This document shows, one piece after another, positions 4,481 to 11,800 of a DNA stretch of 15,269 bases (positions are counted from its first letter, which is position 1; the number at the start of each line of letters is the position of its first letter). Source of the stretch: an uncultured archaeon. Lineage in GTDB: Archaea > Asgardarchaeota > Jordiarchaeia > Jordiarchaeales > Jordiarchaeaceae. The DNA lies in NCBI GenBank assembly GCA_964510585.1, contig CAZECW010000006.1:1-15269 (forward strand), in the 5' to 3' direction. The position numbers and the translations under genes are program-made. A model generated the notes under the pieces. The model was not told where the DNA came from, made no database searches, and saw only the letters and a program-made list of their open reading frames with translations.

Positions 4481-4815
4481 TTCAAGTCTTGCTCCGGAGC
4501 ATTCTTCAACTTTTAGTGGTTGTTCCCTTGGATGTTTTTACGTTGAATTGTCACCGGTAAGAGAATGGATAAACTAATATTTCTTTTTACTTTTAAACAA
4601 TACGCTATTTTTTAATGCTGCAGTTGTGGGGGCTGAGGCCGTCTTTTCGGAGTGTTTTTTTGTTTTGTTTTATGCGGCTATTGGGGTTTTCAGCTCCCAA
4701 ATATGATTGATAGTAATTTTTTATTTATGAAAATATGAACGAAAAGTATAAATAGGGGAGCGTAATTAGATTGAGTCCATAAAAATACACATTGCGACTA
4801 TCCGAGAGTGCCGCC

Positions 4816-5577
4816 ATGAAACTTACCCGAGCAACATACACCATTAAACAATCAAAGCTCACAATAGAAACAGATAAACCCTCCTCCATAAAGCTTGCCA
4901 TCCACTCCATAAAAAGAAACAGAGAACTATTAGAAGAATACATCCAAAAGAATCCCGAATTTCTAACATCCTTCGAACCCCTAGAAGTCAGAGACGCCCC
5001 CAAAATTGTAAACATCATGGCGGAAGCGGCTTTTGAGGCAGGGGTAGGCCCCATGGCTGCGGTTGCCGGAGCCCTAGCAGACCTAGCGGTTGACGCCATG
5101 CTGGTAGAGGCCAAGGTGGCTGTGGTGGAAAATGGTGGTGAAATATCCGCAAACTCAGACACCCCCATCGTGGTAGGCTTACTGGCAGGAACTTCCACAT
5201 TATCCGGTAAAATTGGGTTCCATTTAAAGCCCAAGGATTTCCCCATAGGTATTGGTACAAGCTCTGGAACTGTGGGACACGCAATAAGTTTCGGGGAGGC
5301 GGATGCCGCAACCATTATTGCTGATAGTGCCGCTCTAGCAGATGCTGCTGCTACTGCAGTGGGAAATGCGGTTCAGGGAGAAGACTACGAAAAATCTGTA
5401 CAAAAGGGTTTGGAAACTGCGGAAGCTATTCGGGGAGTAAGAGGCTCACTTATCATAAGGGGCGAGTATGCGGGAATGGTGGGCAAACTCCCCCAACTTG
5501 TGAAAATTGAGGGAGAAGCTTGGAAGAGCTTGAAAAATGTTCAGGATTATCTCCCACCAAAAATCAAATTCATATAA
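4816..5577 (+). CDS. UPF0280 family ApbE-like protein (COG2122-type)
   Basis: GPMAAVAGA, ENGGEI and GTSSGTVGHAISFGEADAATIIADSAALADAAATAVGN. ATG 4816 is preferred over TTG 4792. Confidence 0.88.
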   Translation: MKLTRATYTIKQSKLTIETDKPSSIKLAIHSIKRNRELLEEYIQKNPEFLTSFEPLEVRDAPKIVNIMAEAAFEAGVGPMAAVAGALADLAVDAMLVEAKVAVVENGGEISANSDTPIVVGLLAGTSTLSGKIGFHLKPKDFPIGIGTSSGTVGHAISFGEADAATIIADSAALADAAATAVGNAVQGEDYEKSVQKGLETAEAIRGVRGSLIIRGEYAGMVGKLPQLVKIEGEAWKSLKNVQDYLPPKIKFI

Positions 5578-5594
5578 AAGGGGAGCGAACAAAA

Positions 5595-6155
5595 ATGGTT
5601 CCCGGAAGGCAGGACAGGTTAATCCTAGAAGTAGAAGGCGGAAACATTTCCACCCCCTCAGACATATTAAGCATCGTTGAACACATTAAAAATAGTAAGA
5701 GGAGGGAAGTCCTCGTAGTAGTCACTGGATCTGGAAACCTTCCGAAGCAGATAACCAGTGTGGCTTCTCAGTCATCCTCTAACCAGATGGTTTTTCCAGA
5801 AGAGGATGAAATCCTAGCCCTCGAGCATCTCTTGGGAGCACAACTCATAACTGCTGCGCTGAAATCCAAAAAAATAAACGCCACCTACATTGATCCATTC
5901 CAATACACTCCAATAAGGACGATGGGAAACTCTGGCAGCCCACAAATATCAGAAACTGAAACAGTGAGAGAAGTTAAAAACACAGTTGGCTCCAAACTCA
6001 CAAATAACATAGTAGTTATGTGTGGATTGGTTGGAAAAAATGAGCAGGGAAAAATAACCATAATCAGGGACGATAGGGAGAAAATATTCACAATTTTGAA
6101 AAAGGCCCTTAAGACCCCGCTGCATAAAAAACTATCATACTCCAACGCATCATAG
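5595..6155 (+). CDS. aspartokinase-like (amino-acid-kinase fold) N-lobe-only protein with degenerate catalytic motifs
   Basis: Segment order follows aspartokinase: LEVEGG (KFGG position), VLVVVTGSG (VVVVSAMG), DEILALEHLLGAQLITAAL (D.LLS.GE.LSA.L), YIDP, VVMCGLVGKNEQGKITII (VV.GFIG...G.ITTL). AAGGGGA SD before ATG 5595. Confidence 0.7.
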   Translation: MVPGRQDRLILEVEGGNISTPSDILSIVEHIKNSKRREVLVVVTGSGNLPKQITSVASQSSSNQMVFPEEDEILALEHLLGAQLITAALKSKKINATYIDPFQYTPIRTMGNSGSPQISETETVREVKNTVGSKLTNNIVVMCGLVGKNEQGKITIIRDDREKIFTILKKALKTPLHKKLSYSNAS

Positions 6156-6281
6156 ATGAACAAGTTTAAGAACCATTCAGCCTTTTTTGGTGTCAAATTA
6201 CTGGTTTGAAACTTTTTGGGCTCATAAAATTTGTAGGGTCCTCGGTGGGGGAATAGCTAGGCTGTTCAGCGAGTTTTTGGT

Positions 6282-7226
6282 TTAGATTCTGATTTCTTGC
6301 CTTGTAGCTCTTTTTCTTCTCCTTCTCTCAGGTTTCTTATTCTCCTTGTATGGGCATGCCAGTATCTCGTTGACCTTTTCTTGAACGTCTGGGGGAAGCT
6401 CTTTGTTGGCTATAGCGTAGACTTTCGCAATTACTAGCAGGTCTGATTGTGAGATGTCTGGGTTGCTTGACCAGCCTGAAGAAGCCAGAATCATACATAC
6501 CTTCTCTTTTTTAACGCAGTCCCTCTCACATTCATCACATTGAATCGGCTGAAGGTAGACTTCACCGGTTCTCAGATCAACAGTCCATATGGCTCTCTCA
6601 TCTCTCAAAATAACCTCGTCGTTCTCTGTGCAGAATCCCATTGCTTCCAATACTTCCCTAATTAGGGGGACGTTTAACGGGATTGTTGCGAGGTTCTCCA
6701 GTTTCCTCCGGCTCAGAAGCTGAGCGTAGGGTGGAAGGGTACTATAGGAAAGCCTCAGGTAGAGGGGTTCACTCCTTCTTTCAAATATCCTCTCTGAAAG
6801 AATCTTTAAGCTTTCAATAGGATCCTCGATGTAACTGTCGCCATACTCTATGAAAAGTTCTTGGGGGCTTCTCTCATCCACAATGATGACCAGTACTGGG
6901 ATTTTTCCACAGTGTTTGTAAATCTCTTCGATGTATTTGGGCGCCTCTCCCTCCACACGCCTAGTTAGGAGAACTATAGCTCCATAGGCTCCCTTGAAGT
7001 AGTGGTGAAACATGGACTTAAAAGGCGGAGAATCATAAACGTCCCAGATTTGAATCTTAACCATTCTGCCCTTAACATTAATTACATTCACCTGCAGGCT
7101 AACACCCACAATGGATTTAAAACACTCCAAAAAATAGCTATTAGAATCCATGGATAAAAGGAAACGATCCTTAACCTCCTCACGGGGACCAACAACCAAA
7201 ACCTTAAAAACAAACTCTGAACTCAA
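6282..7226 (-). CDS. Rab/Ras-like small-GTPase-fold protein with degenerate G boxes, fused to a C-terminal Cys-cluster domain and polybasic tail
   Basis: FKVLVVG...SIVGVSL...VKIQIWD...PFKSMFHHYFKGAYGAIVLL follows the Rab consensus. TTG 7226 after a GGGAGTGG SD-like motif is preferred over the track start 7283, which overlaps the upstream gene. Confidence 0.8.
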   Translation of the reverse strand: MSSEFVFKVLVVGPREEVKDRFLLSMDSNSYFLECFKSIVGVSLQVNVINVKGRMVKIQIWDVYDSPPFKSMFHHYFKGAYGAIVLLTRRVEGEAPKYIEEIYKHCGKIPVLVIIVDERSPQELFIEYGDSYIEDPIESLKILSERIFERRSEPLYLRLSYSTLPPYAQLLSRRKLENLATIPLNVPLIREVLEAMGFCTENDEVILRDERAIWTVDLRTGEVYLQPIQCDECERDCVKKEKVCMILASSGWSSNPDISQSDLLVIAKVYAIANKELPPDVQEKVNEILACPYKENKKPERRRRKRATRQEIRI

Positions 7227-7254
7227 GAGATAACCACTCCCCACCGGCCCCTTT

Positions 7255-7452
7255 TCAGCCTCCCGCAATACGGGGCAAAACAATCACAAGGCTACCCTCA
7301 TCAACAAGTGATTCAGAATCCGCCTTCCTGCCATCGACAATAACCGTAAAGTAGTCCTTACTGACCCCTAACTCTGCAAGAAGTTCCCCAACCCTAATAC
7401 TTCTTTTACTAACAAACTTCAACAAACCTAACTTTCCTGAACTTTCACTCAT
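7255..7452 (-). CDS. ThiS/MoaD/SAMP-type ubiquitin-like (beta-grasp) protein with C-terminal GG
   Basis: 65 aa with VGELLAELGV..VIVDG...LVDEGSLVIVLPRIAGG-stop. Confidence 0.9.
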   Translation of the reverse strand: MSESSGKLGLLKFVSKRSIRVGELLAELGVSKDYFTVIVDGRKADSESLVDEGSLVIVLPRIAGG

Positions 7453-7658
7453 AGCTCACAAGTCCACCAAAAACCAGTAATACCCAATAAAATCATAATG
7501 ACAGAAAATATAAGCTTTATGTCAAAAGCAATCCAAAAACAAAAAACCCACAAAAACATTAAAATAACACCCCTAAATTGGCGGTGCATCCCAAACCTTA
7601 AATTAAAAAATAAGGCAAAAAATAACAAAAAGACCAAAAAATTGGGAAAAAAATACAT
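7449..7658 (-). CDS. possible small hydrophobic membrane protein
   Basis: 69-aa very hydrophobic ORF whose TGA overlaps the Ubl ATG (ATGA, 7449-7452). It lies in a T-rich low-complexity stretch, so it may be spurious. Confidence 0.4.
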   Translation of the reverse strand: MYFFPNFLVFLLFFALFFNLRFGMHRQFRGVILMFLWVFCFWIAFDIKLIFSVIMILLGITGFWWTCEL

Positions 7659-8093
7659 TCAGCCTCACATTATACTTCCGCCCACACCACCTCACCAGCC
7701 TCATAAAATTAGCTGAAAGACAACCACCACACTTCAAGCAGACCAAACCCTATCAGCAACAGTTCTGCTACCCAACTCTCATTTACCCCCAGGAAAAGAA
7801 GACCCCTTTTCCAGTGTCTAATCCACTATTACATAATGCTCGACAAGAAAGCGCGCGCTGTAAATAAATGGTGATATGAATTGAATTTATAGTATAGCCA
7901 CATACTTTATTATTCCAAAATTTGTGTGCAGATTCAAATAGTGTTGAAAAATATGAGAGTATTGTAATACGATTTTTCTGGAATGGAGGGAATCTATGGT
8001 GTTATAAGGCATTTTGAACATTTATGCCCATTAATCTATTATTATGGAGATAAATTACAATAATAGGGGAATTTTAACTATTTTTGAGGGAAT

Positions 8094-8318
8094 ATGACGA
8101 TTGTAACATTGAGTTCAAGGGGAAGATTGACGCTTCCGGCTGAGGTTAGGTCTAAGATCAAAGCCACAAAATTCTTGGTTCTTCTGGAAGATGACTCCAT
8201 AAGACTAATTCCTCTTCCAGACCCATTAAAACTAAAGGACTCAATAAAAATTCCATGGAGCCTGGAAGAACTTGAAGAGACGGGCGAAGAATTTACACTC
8301 AAAAGAGCTGAAGGGTAA
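8094..8318 (+). CDS. AbrB/MazE/SpoVT-family DNA-binding antitoxin (VapB-type)
   Basis: VTLSSRGRLTLPAEVRSKI ... LLEDDSIRLIP; acidic C-terminus; GAGGGA SD; overlaps the downstream PIN gene. Confidence 0.88.
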   Translation: MTIVTLSSRGRLTLPAEVRSKIKATKFLVLLEDDSIRLIPLPDPLKLKDSIKIPWSLEELEETGEEFTLKRAEG

Positions 8319-8655
8319 ATTTCTACTATTCTAATGTCTTCCTGTCCTATCTGAAAGGCGACGAACTCTCAGCTCAAGCAGAAAAGGTCATAAAATCTGC
8401 AGTCGGAGGCACTCTAGAAGCCTTTGCATCCTCAATGCTCTATGATGATGTGATATCGGGGTTACGGTCAAAAGGTATGACGCCCAATGAAATTCTGCAG
8501 GTTCTCACAGCTATTGCATCAATACCTCACGCCGCTCTTCCGGTTACCCCCACGATAGCGATAGGCACCCTAACACTATACATAAAATATGGTGGTCAAA
8601 GGAAACTCCACTACTTATGCATTCCACGTAGCCACATCCAGAATCTAGGAGTTAC

Positions 8656-8926
8656 AAAACCTTGGCGAGAAAGCCCCCGACTTTAGTCGTGGGGATGAAT
8701 CGCCAAAAAAGCTTATTTGAAAGTAGGGTTATAAGTAGTTGTTGGTAGCTGAAGGGTTTGGCTTGGGCTTAAGAGGCTAAACAAGATGCAGCCCCCATGA
8801 GGGTGCCAACATAGACGCCGTTCCCCTAAGGGAAGGGCGTGTTAACTGGGTGATGGCACACCCATTGCTTCGAAGGTGATGAGCCAGAAGCAAGAATCTC
8901 CCGACTTTAGTTGCGGAGAGTGTCAA
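8656..8926 (+). mobile_element. complete 271-bp non-autonomous IS200/IS605 element (MITE/PATE) with IS608-type ends
   Basis: Target TTAC (8652-8655); LE guide AAAG (8670-8673) before hairpin CCCC-CGAC-TTTA-GTCG-T-GGGG (8674-8694); RE guide GAAT (8894-8897), hairpin 8898-8918, TCAA 8923-8926. No target duplication, no transposase ORF, and precise removal restores the vapC frame. Confidence 0.93.
8705..8726 (+). promoter_or_regulatory. putative archaeal BRE/TATA promoter inside the MITE
   Basis: AAAAAAGCTTATTTGAAA followed by TTATAAG just inside the left end, oriented toward the omegaRNA-like scaffold. Motif match only. Confidence 0.4.
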
Positions 8927-8946
8927 CGATAATAACAAGCGATGAA
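8785..8946 (+). ncRNA. putative TnpB omegaRNA scaffold plus vapC-derived guide, copy 2
   Basis: Same stems as copy 1; ends at the RE TCAA, followed by flank CGATAATAACAAGCGATGAA. The 5' boundary is approximate. Confidence 0.55.
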
Positions 8947-9108
8947 TATATAATTGAACACCAAAAAAATCTAGGCATAAACGCGATCAATTTAGAAAAC
9001 TTATAACAGTTCGGGATAATACTAGCTATTAATGGATTTTCATAGATGTCTCTGTGGACACAATTTTTATTTACTGTTTTTCCCAATTATTCAAAGGGAG
9101 GATCTATT

Positions 9109-9588
9109 ATGAGTGATTCTACAAACTTCACGGAGATCAGAAAGATCGCGGTTAACTGTCTAGTTGGGGAACTAGGTGAGAAGTTTCTTGGACTAGCCCT
9201 TTTTGGGAGTGTGGCGCGAGGGGAGGGAAATGAGAGAAGCGACTTGGACTTCTTTGTGGTTACACGGGGAGTTGAAGGGGATCGTGAACAGAGGAGAAGA
9301 AGAATGTATCGAATCCTCTCTCCAGTAAATAGGAGGTTTAGGAGAGATGTCTCGGTTTTCACCCTGGAGGAGAGTGAAATTACGGATGTTACTCCTCTTC
9401 TTATAAACATCGCTCACGATGCAGTGATATTATTCGACCCGGAAGGATATCTTGAAAAACTTTTTGAGCGGGTAAAAGAGGCTGTGAGAAGGGCTGGGCT
9501 TGTACCTTACAGGACTAGAGATGGAAAAATCGGGTGGAAACCGGTAAGAGAGCTAGAGTGGGGAGAAAAAATTGAGGTGAAATTTTGA
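9109..9588 (+). CDS. minimal nucleotidyltransferase (MNT/MntA-type antitoxin)
   Basis: LFGSVARGEGNERSDLDFFVV (GS..DxD motif); GGGAGGA SD before ATG 9109; overlaps the HEPN start by 4 nt. Confidence 0.9.
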   Translation: MSDSTNFTEIRKIAVNCLVGELGEKFLGLALFGSVARGEGNERSDLDFFVVTRGVEGDREQRRRRMYRILSPVNRRFRRDVSVFTLEESEITDVTPLLINIAHDAVILFDPEGYLEKLFERVKEAVRRAGLVPYRTRDGKIGWKPVRELEWGEKIEVKF

Positions 9589-10046
9589 ACTCAGAAGAAG
9601 AAGCCAAATACAGGCTCACCCTAGCTCAAGGATATTTGGAGAGAGCTGAGGAAGCCTCAAAACGTGGAGACCACTTCGCAGTCATTTCAAACTCCCAGCT
9701 AGCAGTAGAAAACTCGGCAAAAGCGGTTATCTCCTGCTTTAGAATTCCCAGCTGGAGTCACGACCCAAGTAGTGAACTCTTGGAAGTGACTGAGAGTAAC
9801 AGGGGCAAAATTGAGAAAAGAACTGGGATTAACGTTTATCACGCGCTAAGCACTTTAGCTTCTCACTCCAGTAACCTGGCACCTGAACATGGGAGAATGA
9901 GTTATGGAGATCCCAACCTAAGAATACCGCCTTGGGACTTGGCAAACGCGCAACGGGCCAGAGAAGCCCTAAGCTATGCACGGGAGTCAGTAAAAATTGC
10001 AGAAAAATTTGTCGAAAGATGGTTTTCGGTGGATCCTAAAAATTGA
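9585..10046 (+). CDS. HEPN-domain protein (COG2250-type), MNT-HEPN toxin partner
   Basis: AKYRLTLAQGYLERAEEA, SQLAVENSAKAVI, SHD, HGRMSYGD and AREALSYARES helical pattern; coupled to MNT. Confidence 0.88.
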   Translation: MNSEEEAKYRLTLAQGYLERAEEASKRGDHFAVISNSQLAVENSAKAVISCFRIPSWSHDPSSELLEVTESNRGKIEKRTGINVYHALSTLASHSSNLAPEHGRMSYGDPNLRIPPWDLANAQRAREALSYARESVKIAEKFVERWFSVDPKN

Positions 10047-10132: not shown

Positions 10133-11800
10133 TTATTCTAGGATTTTTGTGACGCGTCCAATTGTTCTTGTTGTTCCTTCTCTGGTGAGGATTCTGTCTC
10201 CCACTCTTAGGAATTCTGGTGAGTATTTTAGTCGCAGTTTAACTTTTGCGAAGTCTCCAACTACTAAGTAGTCGTGGCCTTCGATTTCTTCAAAAACTAC
10301 TGTTTGTTGGATAGTGTTAGTTTGGAGTACTGGTGAGTAGCCTACGGAGATTTTTGCGGGGTGTCTTGTTACCACAATGTTTGCTTCAAATAGCCTGCAG
10401 GCTTTGGATTCAAAGTCCATGTCTGCGATGATTTGACCTCTCCTAATTTTTTTGGGGTCTACACGTTTAACGTCGAAACCGAATATGTCCCCCGCTTTGA
10501 CGCGCTGGACGCGTTCCCGGAAGACTTCTACTGTGGAGATTTTTCCCTCGAAAAAGTGTCCGTTTTCGTCAGGGCCTATTTTCACTCTTTGTCCGGGTTT
10601 GAATATTCCCTGCTTGACTGTTCCCGTGACTACCACGTTTGTCCCTGGCAGTCCCAGGTAAACCTTGTCTATGTAGGCTAGTGCTGGTTTTGTGAGTGAT
10701 TCTTGAGTTATGCGTGACGGTAGGCTGGCTAGTATGTTTATGAGGAGGTTTAAACCATCACTGGTGACGCTGCTTACTTCAACTATGGGGACGATTATTC
10801 TGTGCATAATCTCCTTTTGTATAATTTTGATGTCTTCCTCGTCTCTAACGAATAGGGGTAGCCGGCCAATGTTTTTGATGGTTTGGCGAACCACTTCTCT
10901 TACCTTTTCCAGTTCGGGAGGCTTTGCTTGGTCCACTTTTGAAATTAGAACCATGAATGGTGTTTCCTGACTAGCCATGAGTAAGAGGTGTTCTCTTGTA
11001 ATGTCGTCCAAGCGCCAGACGCCTGTCCGCATCTCTTCTGACAGCATGAGTTTATACTCGTCTCGGGCTGGGATGAGTATTACACCGTACTGAGAATCGG
11101 ATCCTAGGATGGCCCTAATCATAGTTTTTACGTATTCTGAGTGTCCGGGGGCGTCTACAAAATTGATTATTCTTTTTGACCGTTCTAATACTCTGGCTCT
11201 TTCCTCTGGATCCAATGGATTTTCTAGTGGGGTTATTTTGTTGTTGTGGTCTAGTCCTACGAATGCGAAGTGGAGGTCGGCTGTCTGCCCTTTTTCCAGT
11301 TCTTGGGGGTGTCTGAGTAGGCAGGCTCTTGCTGATCCCTTTCCATCGTCTAGCTTGTTTCCCAGGAGAACCCCTATAAGAGTGCTTTTACCAGCGTTAA
11401 CTCTTCCCGCGAATCCTACGGAGATTAGATCCTGTAATTCCTCTGAGGGTGTTTTTGCCAGAGTATACCTTAATACAATTCCTTTAGTGGTGTGAAAAGT
11501 ATACTTTTCGGTTATGTTTAAACCCGCTTCTTGGCAGATTATCCTTAGCACGAAGTCTGAAACCTCAGCCTGCTCCTCTGTTAATCCAAATATCTCCCAC
11601 TCCTCGCCGCCTAAGTCCTCTATTCCAACAAAAAGGTTTCCCTCGCCCTCACTTGTTATATATTTTAATTGTGCTATAAGCTTTTGTTTTCTTTTTGGAG
11701 ACAGGTCTGCAGATTTTAGAAGACGCTTAAACTCCGTGCGAAAATTTTCGCCCCGATTCACCAAATCTCTGAGAACATCATTGTCAGACAAAACTAACAC
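10133..11800 (-). CDS. GTPBP1/GTPBP2-like translational GTPase (EF-Tu/EF1A superfamily) with N-terminal AlbA_2/Schlafen-like domain
   Basis: G1 GRVNAGKST, G2 RHPQELEKGQT, G3 DAPGH, G4 SKVD, G5 SSVT; beta-barrel domains II and III; N-terminal GENFRTEFK...LIAQLKY...GEGNLFVGIED. Confidence 0.9.
   Translation of the reverse strand: MLVLSDNDVLRDLVNRGENFRTEFKRLLKSADLSPKRKQKLIAQLKYITSEGEGNLFVGIEDLGGEEWEIFGLTEEQAEVSDFVLRIICQEAGLNITEKYTFHTTKGIVLRYTLAKTPSEELQDLISVGFAGRVNAGKSTLIGVLLGNKLDDGKGSARACLLRHPQELEKGQTADLHFAFVGLDHNNKITPLENPLDPEERARVLERSKRIINFVDAPGHSEYVKTMIRAILGSDSQYGVILIPARDEYKLMLSEEMRTGVWRLDDITREHLLLMASQETPFMVLISKVDQAKPPELEKVREVVRQTIKNIGRLPLFVRDEEDIKIIQKEIMHRIIVPIVEVSSVTSDGLNLLINILASLPSRITQESLTKPALAYIDKVYLGLPGTNVVVTGTVKQGIFKPGQRVKIGPDENGHFFEGKISTVEVFRERVQRVKAGDIFGFDVKRVDPKKIRRGQIIADMDFESKACRLFEANIVVTRHPAKISVGYSPVLQTNTIQQTVVFEEIEGHDYLVVGDFAKVKLRLKYSPEFLRVGDRILTREGTTRTIGRVTKILE

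Follow-up and report, generated by a model that had tools for sequence, protein, structure and literature searches.

A degenerate Rab-like G domain fused to an Asgard-specific cysteine domain predicted to bind a SAMP2-type ubiquitin-like protein

The window analyzed here is a stretch of 15,269 nucleotides (nt) from an uncultured Asgard archaeon of the Jordiarchaeaceae (contig CAZECW010000006.1), and the gene under study encodes a protein of 314 amino acids (aa) in which a Rab-like domain with broken nucleotide-binding motifs is joined to a cysteine-bearing domain. Judged by its sequences, this second domain defines an Asgard-wide family that has neither a Pfam entry nor a solved relative. Directly upstream lies a gene for a small ubiquitin-like protein (Ubl), whose C-terminal tail the cysteine domain is predicted to engage. 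We favor the explanation, for which we see the balance as roughly even, that the protein joins a pseudo-GTPase to a Zn-braced domain with affinity for a SAMP2-type Ubl, which is either carried on C244 or read non-covalently. The first-pass annotation of this DNA had picked out the same open reading frame (ORF), and every string it quoted is present; its strand has to be corrected to minus, and the upstream Ubl gene had been left out. The features are as follows.

6282-7226, minus strand: the whole gene for the 314-aa pseudo-GTPase and cysteine-domain protein (ORF list and translation; 13 orthologues; stop codon at 6282-6284).
6777-7226, minus strand: residues 1-150, the Ras/Rab-fold domain with degenerate G1-G5 boxes (Pfam, Foldseek and paralogue alignment).
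6672-6776, minus strand: residues 151-185, an extra beta-strand (LYLRLSY) and a low-confidence linker (AlphaFold2 model).
6351-6671, minus strand: residues 186-292, the Asgard-specific alpha/beta cysteine domain, modeled as a1-b1-b2-b3-b4-a2-a3 (model on 71 sequences).
6516-6539, minus strand: C230-x2-C233-x3-C237, three of the four cysteines of a putative metal tetrad (joint loss pattern).
6354-6356, minus strand: C291, just past helix a3, the fourth cysteine of the putative tetrad (invariant in the alignment; joint loss).
6495-6497, minus strand: C244, at the end of strand b4, a candidate reactive or Ubl-tail-contacting cysteine (conservation in 116/116 sequences; predicted interface).
6375-6497, minus strand: residues 244-284, the predicted Ubl-binding surface (complex prediction and conservation).
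6285-6341, minus strand: residues 296-314, the polybasic tail KKPERRRRKRATRQEIRI (orthologue alignment; clade-specific).
7255-7452, minus strand: the upstream gene, for a 65-aa SAMP2/ThiS-like Ubl ending in ...VLPRIAGG (weak Pfam matches; orthologue profile).
7505-7521, minus strand: an invariant DNA motif, CATAAAGCTTATATTTT, the probable promoter with B recognition element (BRE) and TATA box (identical in 8/8 lineages).

The 314-aa ORF begins with a TTG codon at 7226, and a Shine-Dalgarno-like GGTGGGGAG lies 12 nt 5' of this codon. A longer ORF of 333 aa from 7283 is the less likely alternative, as it would overlap the last part of the upstream gene, and we prefer the start at 7226. The protein has 13 close orthologues (70-92% identity), all from Freyarchaeia/Jordarchaeia metagenomes, the named sources being 'Candidatus Freyarchaeota', 'Freyarchaeum deiterrae' and 'Jordarchaeum'.

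The N-terminal domain has kept a small-GTPase fold. Pfam assigned residues 8-115 to Roc (33.4 bits; cut-off 27) and to Ras (26.6 bits; cut-off 21.6), and the top Foldseek matches in the PDB were all Rab or Ran proteins (E from 9e-9, probability 1.00, template modeling (TM) score by target 0.46-0.66), the best of them Rab43 (E 9e-9), Rab1b and Rab8 (TM by target 0.57-0.66). The full-length AlphaFold2 model has a predicted local distance difference test score (pLDDT) of 72.7, with values above 90 in the core of the G domain and weak switch regions; in the segment that follows, a strand at residues 155-160 is predicted with pLDDT >90 and is conserved throughout the family, and residues 175-180 fall below 50. 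We read the G boxes from an alignment with eight canonical small-GTPase paralogues of the same genome, which encodes at least eight such proteins. These paralogues carry GDGxVGKT, WDxxGQ, NKxD and ETSAK, whereas all five boxes are changed in the protein studied here: the canonical GDGxVGKT of G1 has become GPREEVKD, the Thr of G2 is Ile, WDxxGQ of G3 is WDVYDS, NKxD of G4 is deleted with about ten residues gone, and ETSAK of G5 is replaced by IEDPIE. The first-pass annotation had described Rab-signature segments next to broken nucleotide-binding boxes and had made its case depend on the domain modeling as a G domain; the alignment and the Foldseek matches bear it out on both counts.

The broken strings are invariant in the protein and its 13 orthologues (14 sequences), which indicates that the changes are maintained by selection and reflect neither decay nor sequencing artefact. 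Not one of the 81 full-length family members retains G1, G3 and G4 together, and the N-termini of remote relatives are degenerate in other ways (e.g. GGPEGFKT, GDNPALMA and GEEEPLKT). The Walker A motif is kept by a single full-length member (1/81), P0035. This metagenomic protein of 357 aa has GAVGTGKT and the Thr of G2 together with DxxA for DxxG and no NKxD, and it may be an intermediate toward the dead state. K8, G41, W61 and G79 of the N-terminal domain are nearly invariant family-wide, and the P-loop lysine (K19) and D62 of the WD motif remain in the Freyarchaeia clade. The C-terminus, which ends in ...RRRRKRATRQEIRI, has no CC or CxC prenylation motif. Overall, the N-terminal domain is most likely a class-I-type pseudo-GTPase, one that keeps the G fold and is predicted from its motifs to have lost guanine nucleotide binding.

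To define the family we searched residues 130-314 with HMMER against 1.84 billion cluster representatives and obtained 101 representatives at E <=0.001, 18 of them at E <=1e-10. Most of the 101 are proteins of 300-400 aa that match through their C-terminal third, and the few with a name are hypothetical proteins of Thorarchaeota and Hermodarchaeota; three long matches (P0041, P0093 and P0103) lacked the cysteine motif, were similar through repeats and were set aside as spurious. A profile of the domain found matches in 60 of 201 sampled Asgard genomes, mostly one per genome and spread over 7 of 27 taxonomic families, and the domain is nearly always joined to a degenerate G domain. The same profile matched nothing in Pfam and none of the PDB sequences. 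Folded alone on an alignment of 71 sequences, the domain reached a pLDDT of 87.6, with a helix at 186-195, strands at 204-208, 212-217, 223-227 and 241-243, a long loop, and helices at 260-273 and 279-289. Foldseek, which the first-pass annotation had proposed for both domains and which placed the N-terminal one among the Rabs, returned nothing for this model in the PDB at E <=0.001. In a shape search of the ESM Atlas the leading match was a bacterial protein of DUF4132 type (TM 0.55 over 101 residues), a result we judged uninformative, and Atlas feature searches gave no usable match or scores <0.8. The architecture had not been recognized as a described one at first reading, and Pfam, the PDB and the literature searched likewise gave us no description of it or of the domain.

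Two identities considered for the domain were dropped. One, TRAPPC3/V4R, derives from a Thorarchaeota TRAPPC3 with a Zn-Cys4 site (PMC10933270); none of the searches brought up a structure or family of TRAPP or V4R type. The other was a Rag-like roadblock or longin domain, for which the order of secondary-structure elements differs and the matches were no better than background. In one Asgard family the domain also occurs on its own, without a G domain (L111:4823-5311, L112:4987-5382, L113:4734-5327, L114:4963-5442 and L115:4610-4969). These stand-alone copies have only the equivalent of C244 (LCVT...PW), and their genes always lie between a profilin-like gene of 123-130 aa and a GAPDH-like gene.

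The cysteines of the domain fall into two groups. In the 13 orthologues the CDECERDCVKKEKVC cluster (C230, C233, C237 and C244) and C291 are invariant and a sixth cysteine, C199, varies; family-wide, C230, C233, C244 and C291 are invariant, as is G79 of the G domain, and P227, C237, G251, W252, K268, P278 and V281 are nearly so. Among 116 sequences, 106 have all five cysteines, four have C237 alone replaced and six keep C244 alone, namely the five stand-alone proteins (about 120-200 aa, from one taxonomic family) and P0111. Because C230, C233, C237 and C291 are lost together in these six, the simplest reading of the pattern is that they form one metal site, dispensable as a unit. The metal is probably Zn, since the spacing between the cysteines varies across the family (x3-x6 and x6-x11). 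C244 is present in all 116 sequences, including those that have lost the other four, suggesting that it has a separate, indispensable role. A fusion to a cysteine-rich, metal-binding domain, as first proposed, is thus supported, with metal binding probable; the single CxxCxxxC-x6-C cluster in which it had been framed does not hold, as the variation separates the tetrad from the universal C244. The polybasic tail, likewise pointed out at first reading, is present and conserved in most Freyarchaeia orthologues (pLDDT <50). In other clades it is absent or swapped for a longer helical extension, so that it is an addition of one clade and no feature of the family.

The Ubl gene lies 28 nt upstream of the pseudo-GTPase start, on the same strand. 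The 65-aa product falls short of the Pfam cut-offs for both ThiS (19.3 against 22.5 bits) and SAMP2 (18.5 against 27 bits); seven of eight Ubl orthologues match Pfam SAMP2 (best E 1.5e-6), and the best PDB match of the Ubl profile is P. furiosus SAMP2 (5lda_B, E 0.0028). The sequence ...VLPRIAGG is followed by the stop codon, and the Gly-Gly end is invariant in the eight orthologues. A Ubl gene with this ending lies 20-30 nt upstream of the pseudo-GTPase gene in Freyarchaeia lineages, directly upstream in every lineage examined except one, and the context beyond it varies by lineage (IMPDH/TYW2/EF1A-like, MttB, HicB or XylR-V4R). The 17-nt motif CATAAAGCTTATATTTT, 53 nt 5' of the Ubl ATG, is identical in the 8/8 lineages with variable flanks, and the window contains it just once, against a chance expectation of 0. 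It is the probable BRE/TATA promoter of a two-gene operon, as read from its sequence, and together with the 28-nt spacing it suggests that Ubl and pseudo-GTPase are co-transcribed. An ORF for a 69-aa hydrophobic 'membrane peptide' overlaps this region (7449-7658, minus strand). We rejected it as a gene: it has in-frame stops in close relatives, and its conserved part is the DNA motif at 7505-7521 only.

The same genome has a second Ubl paralogue on contig C149 (G000:C149:16575-16763; L104:6064-6267), 67 aa long and ending in ...IIVLPKIKGG, about 3.3 kb from a 246-aa activating enzyme (E1) of MoeB/ThiF type (L104:2014-2754), one of four ThiF-family E1s in this genome. This E1 is likely to activate both Ubl copies. 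With the second copy near the E1, the operon copy looks like a lineage-specific duplicate set beside its user.

For the complex prediction, the full-length protein entered with an alignment of 66 rows and the Ubl with one of 8, and Zn was included. The interface score ipSAE was 0.75, 0.77 and 0.77 in three runs, and none of three controls scored above 0.00. In calibration, 58 of 80 solved complexes attained this mark, as did 2 of 110 mismatched pairs, counts that apply only roughly here, where our own alignments were supplied and a Zn ligand was included. At least 64% of contacts were common to the runs, and the partner pLDDT was at least 64. On the protein the predicted interface comprises residues 192, 195-197, 244-255, 258, 260, 263-264, 266-268, 270-271, 277-278, 280-281 and 284; on the Ubl, it takes in the last strand with the GG tail (53-65), the stretch 28-42 and residue 50. 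The closest predicted pairs are W252 with Ubl residues 56-58 and residues 247/248 with P60/R61, and the tail of the Ubl points toward C244. This predicted interface coincides with the non-cysteine residues that are conserved family-wide, on the C244-S255 loop with G251-W252-S253, on helix 260-271 with L263, L264 and K268, and at P278, V281 and K284; the four tetrad cysteines fall outside it. The models thus predict that the C-terminal domain engages the C-terminal tail of the Ubl, a partner for the conserved surface that had been missed when the Ubl gene was passed over.

A link between domain and Ubl also appears among the 201 genomes, where a Ubl profile found proteins ending in ...[IV]LPxIAGG in 102, usually one per genome and occasionally two or three. 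Of the 60 genomes that encode the C-terminal domain, 56 also have the Ubl family, compared with 46 of the 141 that do not encode it; the raw Fisher P of 1e-16 for this co-occurrence is inflated by genome relatedness. By hand tally, 19 genomes of the Thor-like family have both, two the domain only, four the Ubl only and 18 neither. A canonical ubiquitin-conjugating enzyme (E2) was found in 0/6 sampled genomes of this family.

Several features of the C-terminal domain resemble those of E2s. The modeled order of its elements (a1, a four-strand meander, a2, a3) is that of UBC, UEV and RWD domains, and E2, UEV, RWD, Atg3 or Atg10 folds make up about one-third of 50 structural neighbors among the matches listed. 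W252 lies at +8 from C244 (in 92%), the same spacing as in the Asgard E2 consensus VCVGILGKDW, and the C244 region is followed, as in E2s, by a hydrophobic helix and then a Pro-led helix. Alignments to E2s by hhalign always fell in a Cys-on-Cys register, and the predicted pose appears to resemble the closed E2~Ub state. These likenesses do not establish E2 homology. We have not filed the domain in the E2 superfamily and propose only that its mode of action may be E2- or UEV-like. A bolder version, which we hold tentatively and think possible at most, is that the domain is a highly diverged E2 that takes up an E1-activated SAMP2-type Ubl as a thioester on C244 and has the dead Rab-like domain as a built-in targeting subunit. 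If this were true, it would constitute a second, Asgard-specific route of Ubl conjugation beside the eukaryote-like ubiquitin operons, one present even in Thor-like lineages without a canonical E2, and it would provide the first E2 for an archaeal SAMP. On contig C157, beside a canonical E1-E2 pair, lies an ORF of 303 aa that matches UQ_con weakly, below the cut-off (21.3 bits; G000:C157:38116-38391, L023).

In the Ubl-handling explanation that we favor, the Rab/Ras-fold module (residues 1-150) would offer a fixed interaction or targeting surface without guanine nucleotide, and the module at 186-292 would hold one metal ion, probably Zn, via C230, C233, C237 and C291. The face formed by C244, G251-W252-S253, helix 260-271 and P278/V281 would bind the last beta-strand of the Ubl and its ...LPRIAGG tail. 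The Ubl would come from a dedicated copy co-transcribed just upstream in Freyarchaeia, and from a single-copy gene elsewhere in the genome in other Asgard clades. The most likely mechanism would be that C244 carries the activated Ubl in the manner of an E2, because the order of secondary-structure elements, the Cys-to-Trp spacing and the predicted geometry of tail and cysteine resemble an E2~Ub intermediate; if C244 is unreactive, the domain might instead read the Ubl non-covalently, as UEV domains do. The site or target of Ubl handling would be set by the pseudo-GTPase together with the basic tail. The nucleotide-independent Rab-fold module of the first-pass annotation survives in this explanation, and the 'scaffold' role that it cited for eukaryotic pseudo-GTPases appears too general here: a Ubl-handling module, possibly E2/UEV-like, fits better.

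Several observations weigh against Ubl handling or its E2-like form. The complex with the Ubl is a prediction, the two genes are adjacent only within a single family of close relatives (f1), and the genomes that show co-occurrence are related, with a Ubl family broader than the domain family. In the exceptional Freyarchaeia lineage, represented by two independent assemblies (L018:2045-2262 and L019:71-289), the Ubl gene aligns as DNA, is disrupted by several frameshifting indels and has lost its GG end; the pseudo-GTPase gene is intact. As for E2 likeness, hhalign against 27 Asgard E2s gave P 0.28, which became 0.047 when the alignment was enlarged, and a probability of about 1% or less; UQ_con matched none of 71 family members even at an E-value limit of 1; there is no HPN motif, with C230-x2-C233-x3-C237 in its place; and Foldseek, as noted, found no match for the domain at its threshold.

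The rival explanation of greatest weight is a protein that acts as a nucleotide-independent scaffold without Ubl function, in which a structural Zn domain binds some other partner such as a membrane protein and the upstream Ubl is a lineage-specific, functionally unrelated neighbor. Outside f1 the Ubl is never adjacent, and the distant relatives examined have no conserved Ubl, E1 or JAMM neighbor; one Freyarchaeia lineage lost the upstream Ubl and kept the pseudo-GTPase gene; and synteny among orthologues that are 70-92% identical is weak evidence. In the Thor-like family, moreover, the conserved upstream gene encodes a membrane protein of about 145 aa with an acidic tail, and the remaining clades have no gene context in common. 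We nevertheless regard such a scaffold as rather unlikely, given a predicted complex at 0.77 against 0.00 for controls that falls on the conserved surface of the family, an invariant promoter motif and 28-nt spacing that favor co-transcription, and a Ubl family found in 56/60 domain-bearing genomes. Next in weight comes a sulfur-relay or Fe-S protein, which would hold an Fe-S cluster or take sulfur from a thiocarboxylated Ubl C-terminus in the style of TtuB-TtuA or Urm1-Ncs6. Its partner belongs to the ThiS/SAMP2 family of sulfur carriers, SAMP2 is also a sulfur carrier for tRNA thiolation (PMC2948915), five cysteines of the domain are conserved, and the predicted contact puts the GG tail at a cysteine-bearing loop. 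We consider it improbable all the same: Pfam found no PP-loop ATPase, rhodanese or other sulfur-transferase domain, the variable cysteine spacing suits structural Zn over a cubane cluster, and the variants with C244 alone cannot hold a cluster and yet keep the interface residues.

Two further explanations receive less weight again. The Cys4-type site and the KKPERRRRKRATRQ tail could belong to a zinc-finger regulator that binds DNA or RNA and dimerizes through its G-like domain, and the first helix and three strands of the C-terminal domain are loosely winged-helix-like; the tail, however, occurs in the Freyarchaeia clade only, the conserved surface is hydrophobic (W252, L263 and L264) and not basic, and no DNA-binding fold was prominent in the structure searches, which leaves such a regulator quite improbable. 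Finally, survival of K19 and D62 in the Freyarchaeia clade and GAVGTGKT in P0035 might point to a cryptic active NTPase with a non-canonical nucleotide pocket. This we find hardly credible in a protein whose second P-loop Gly is Val, whose Ser/Thr is Asp, which has two Glu within the loop and which has lost the NKxD segment by deletion and G5 as well; Thor-like members such as that with GDNPALMA have not even the Lys.

Neighboring genes were examined in the Thor-like loci and in the window. The Thor-like membrane protein (P0120) has a poly-acidic C-terminal tail, and its ORF lies upstream of the family gene at L062, L065-L067, L073, L076, L077, L083 and L089; it is a possible partner of the Thor-like family proteins. 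At L089 (span 4654-6930; family protein at 7001-8113) a 604-aa protein with weak N-terminal PIN-domain matches precedes the membrane-protein gene. In the window, positions 10133-11800 (minus strand) encode a protein of 555 aa that resembles EF-1-alpha/EF-Tu and is extended at its N-terminus by about 120 residues; at 127 bits it is far short of the NCBIfam EF-1-alpha cut-off (502), and it looks like a divergent paralogue of the translational GTPases. In a relative (L009) the syntenic place is taken by a 552-aa gene of the EF-Tu family, which shares its strand with the genes for the Ubl and the pseudo-GTPase. Between the EF1A-like gene and the Ubl operon lies a toxin-antitoxin-like block (8078-10046) with a small ORF whose N-terminus is VapB/AbrB-like by eye (8094-8318), an MNT nucleotidyltransferase (9046-9588) and a HEPN protein (9585-10046). 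The corresponding stretch of L009 holds a second ThiS-like gene (102 aa, ending in AAGG), and the block therefore looks like an insertion.

Small GTPases and Ubl systems of Asgard archaea are both central to ideas on eukaryogenesis, and this family would unite the two in one protein. It also makes dead GTPases, hitherto mainly a eukaryotic topic, the subject of a conserved and widespread archaeal family, and it is a testable candidate for a missing step in sampylation. With no Pfam family and no solved relative, the C-terminal domain is a clean target for structure determination, and the prediction names the residues concerned (C244, W252, L263/L264 and K268, against Ubl tail residues 56-65).

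Compared with Asgard and eukaryotic Rab/Ras proteins (PF00071 and PF08477), the protein has the same fold and keeps the structural residues of the RabF-type segments; it differs in the loss of its G boxes, the absence of the prenylation cysteine and the appended region of about 160 residues. As in the eukaryotic pseudoGTPases CENP-M, p190RhoGAP pG1/pG2 and the AAGAB N-terminal domain (PMC5593906, PMC12490416), a G fold would serve as a nucleotide-free interaction module, whereas the present family is archaeal, of independent origin and fused to a cysteine domain. No archaeal pseudoGTPase family was named in the literature searched. CENP-M was the top language-model neighbor of one Thor-clade member, at a score of 0.78 that lies below threshold and serves as a lead only. 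With E2, UEV and RWD domains, including Atg3/Atg10 and the BRCC45 UEV, the C-terminal domain, as modeled, shares the order of elements, a cysteine after b4, a Trp at +8 and a hydrophobic a2 on which the Ubl is predicted to rest with its tail toward the cysteine; unlike them, it has no HPN motif, no Pfam match and non-significant scores, and a Cys4 metal site appears to be inserted before b4. The Rag/Gtr proteins have a similar overall layout, in which a compact alpha/beta interaction domain (about 110 residues) lies C-terminal to a small G domain, but they are active as GTPases. The C-terminal domain described here, in contrast to theirs, has no helix between strands 2 and 3, the hallmark of roadblock domains, and its roadblock and longin matches were no better than others. 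The system closest to the proposed function is SAMP2/UbaA sampylation (Haloferax volcanii; P. furiosus 5lda), with which it shares a SAMP2-type beta-grasp partner with a ...LPxIxGG tail and, in this genome, MoeB/ThiF-type E1 genes. To our knowledge, archaeal sampylation has an E1 only, with no E2 or reader known; what would set the present system apart is a dedicated module, linked to the Ubl, that is predicted to bind it.

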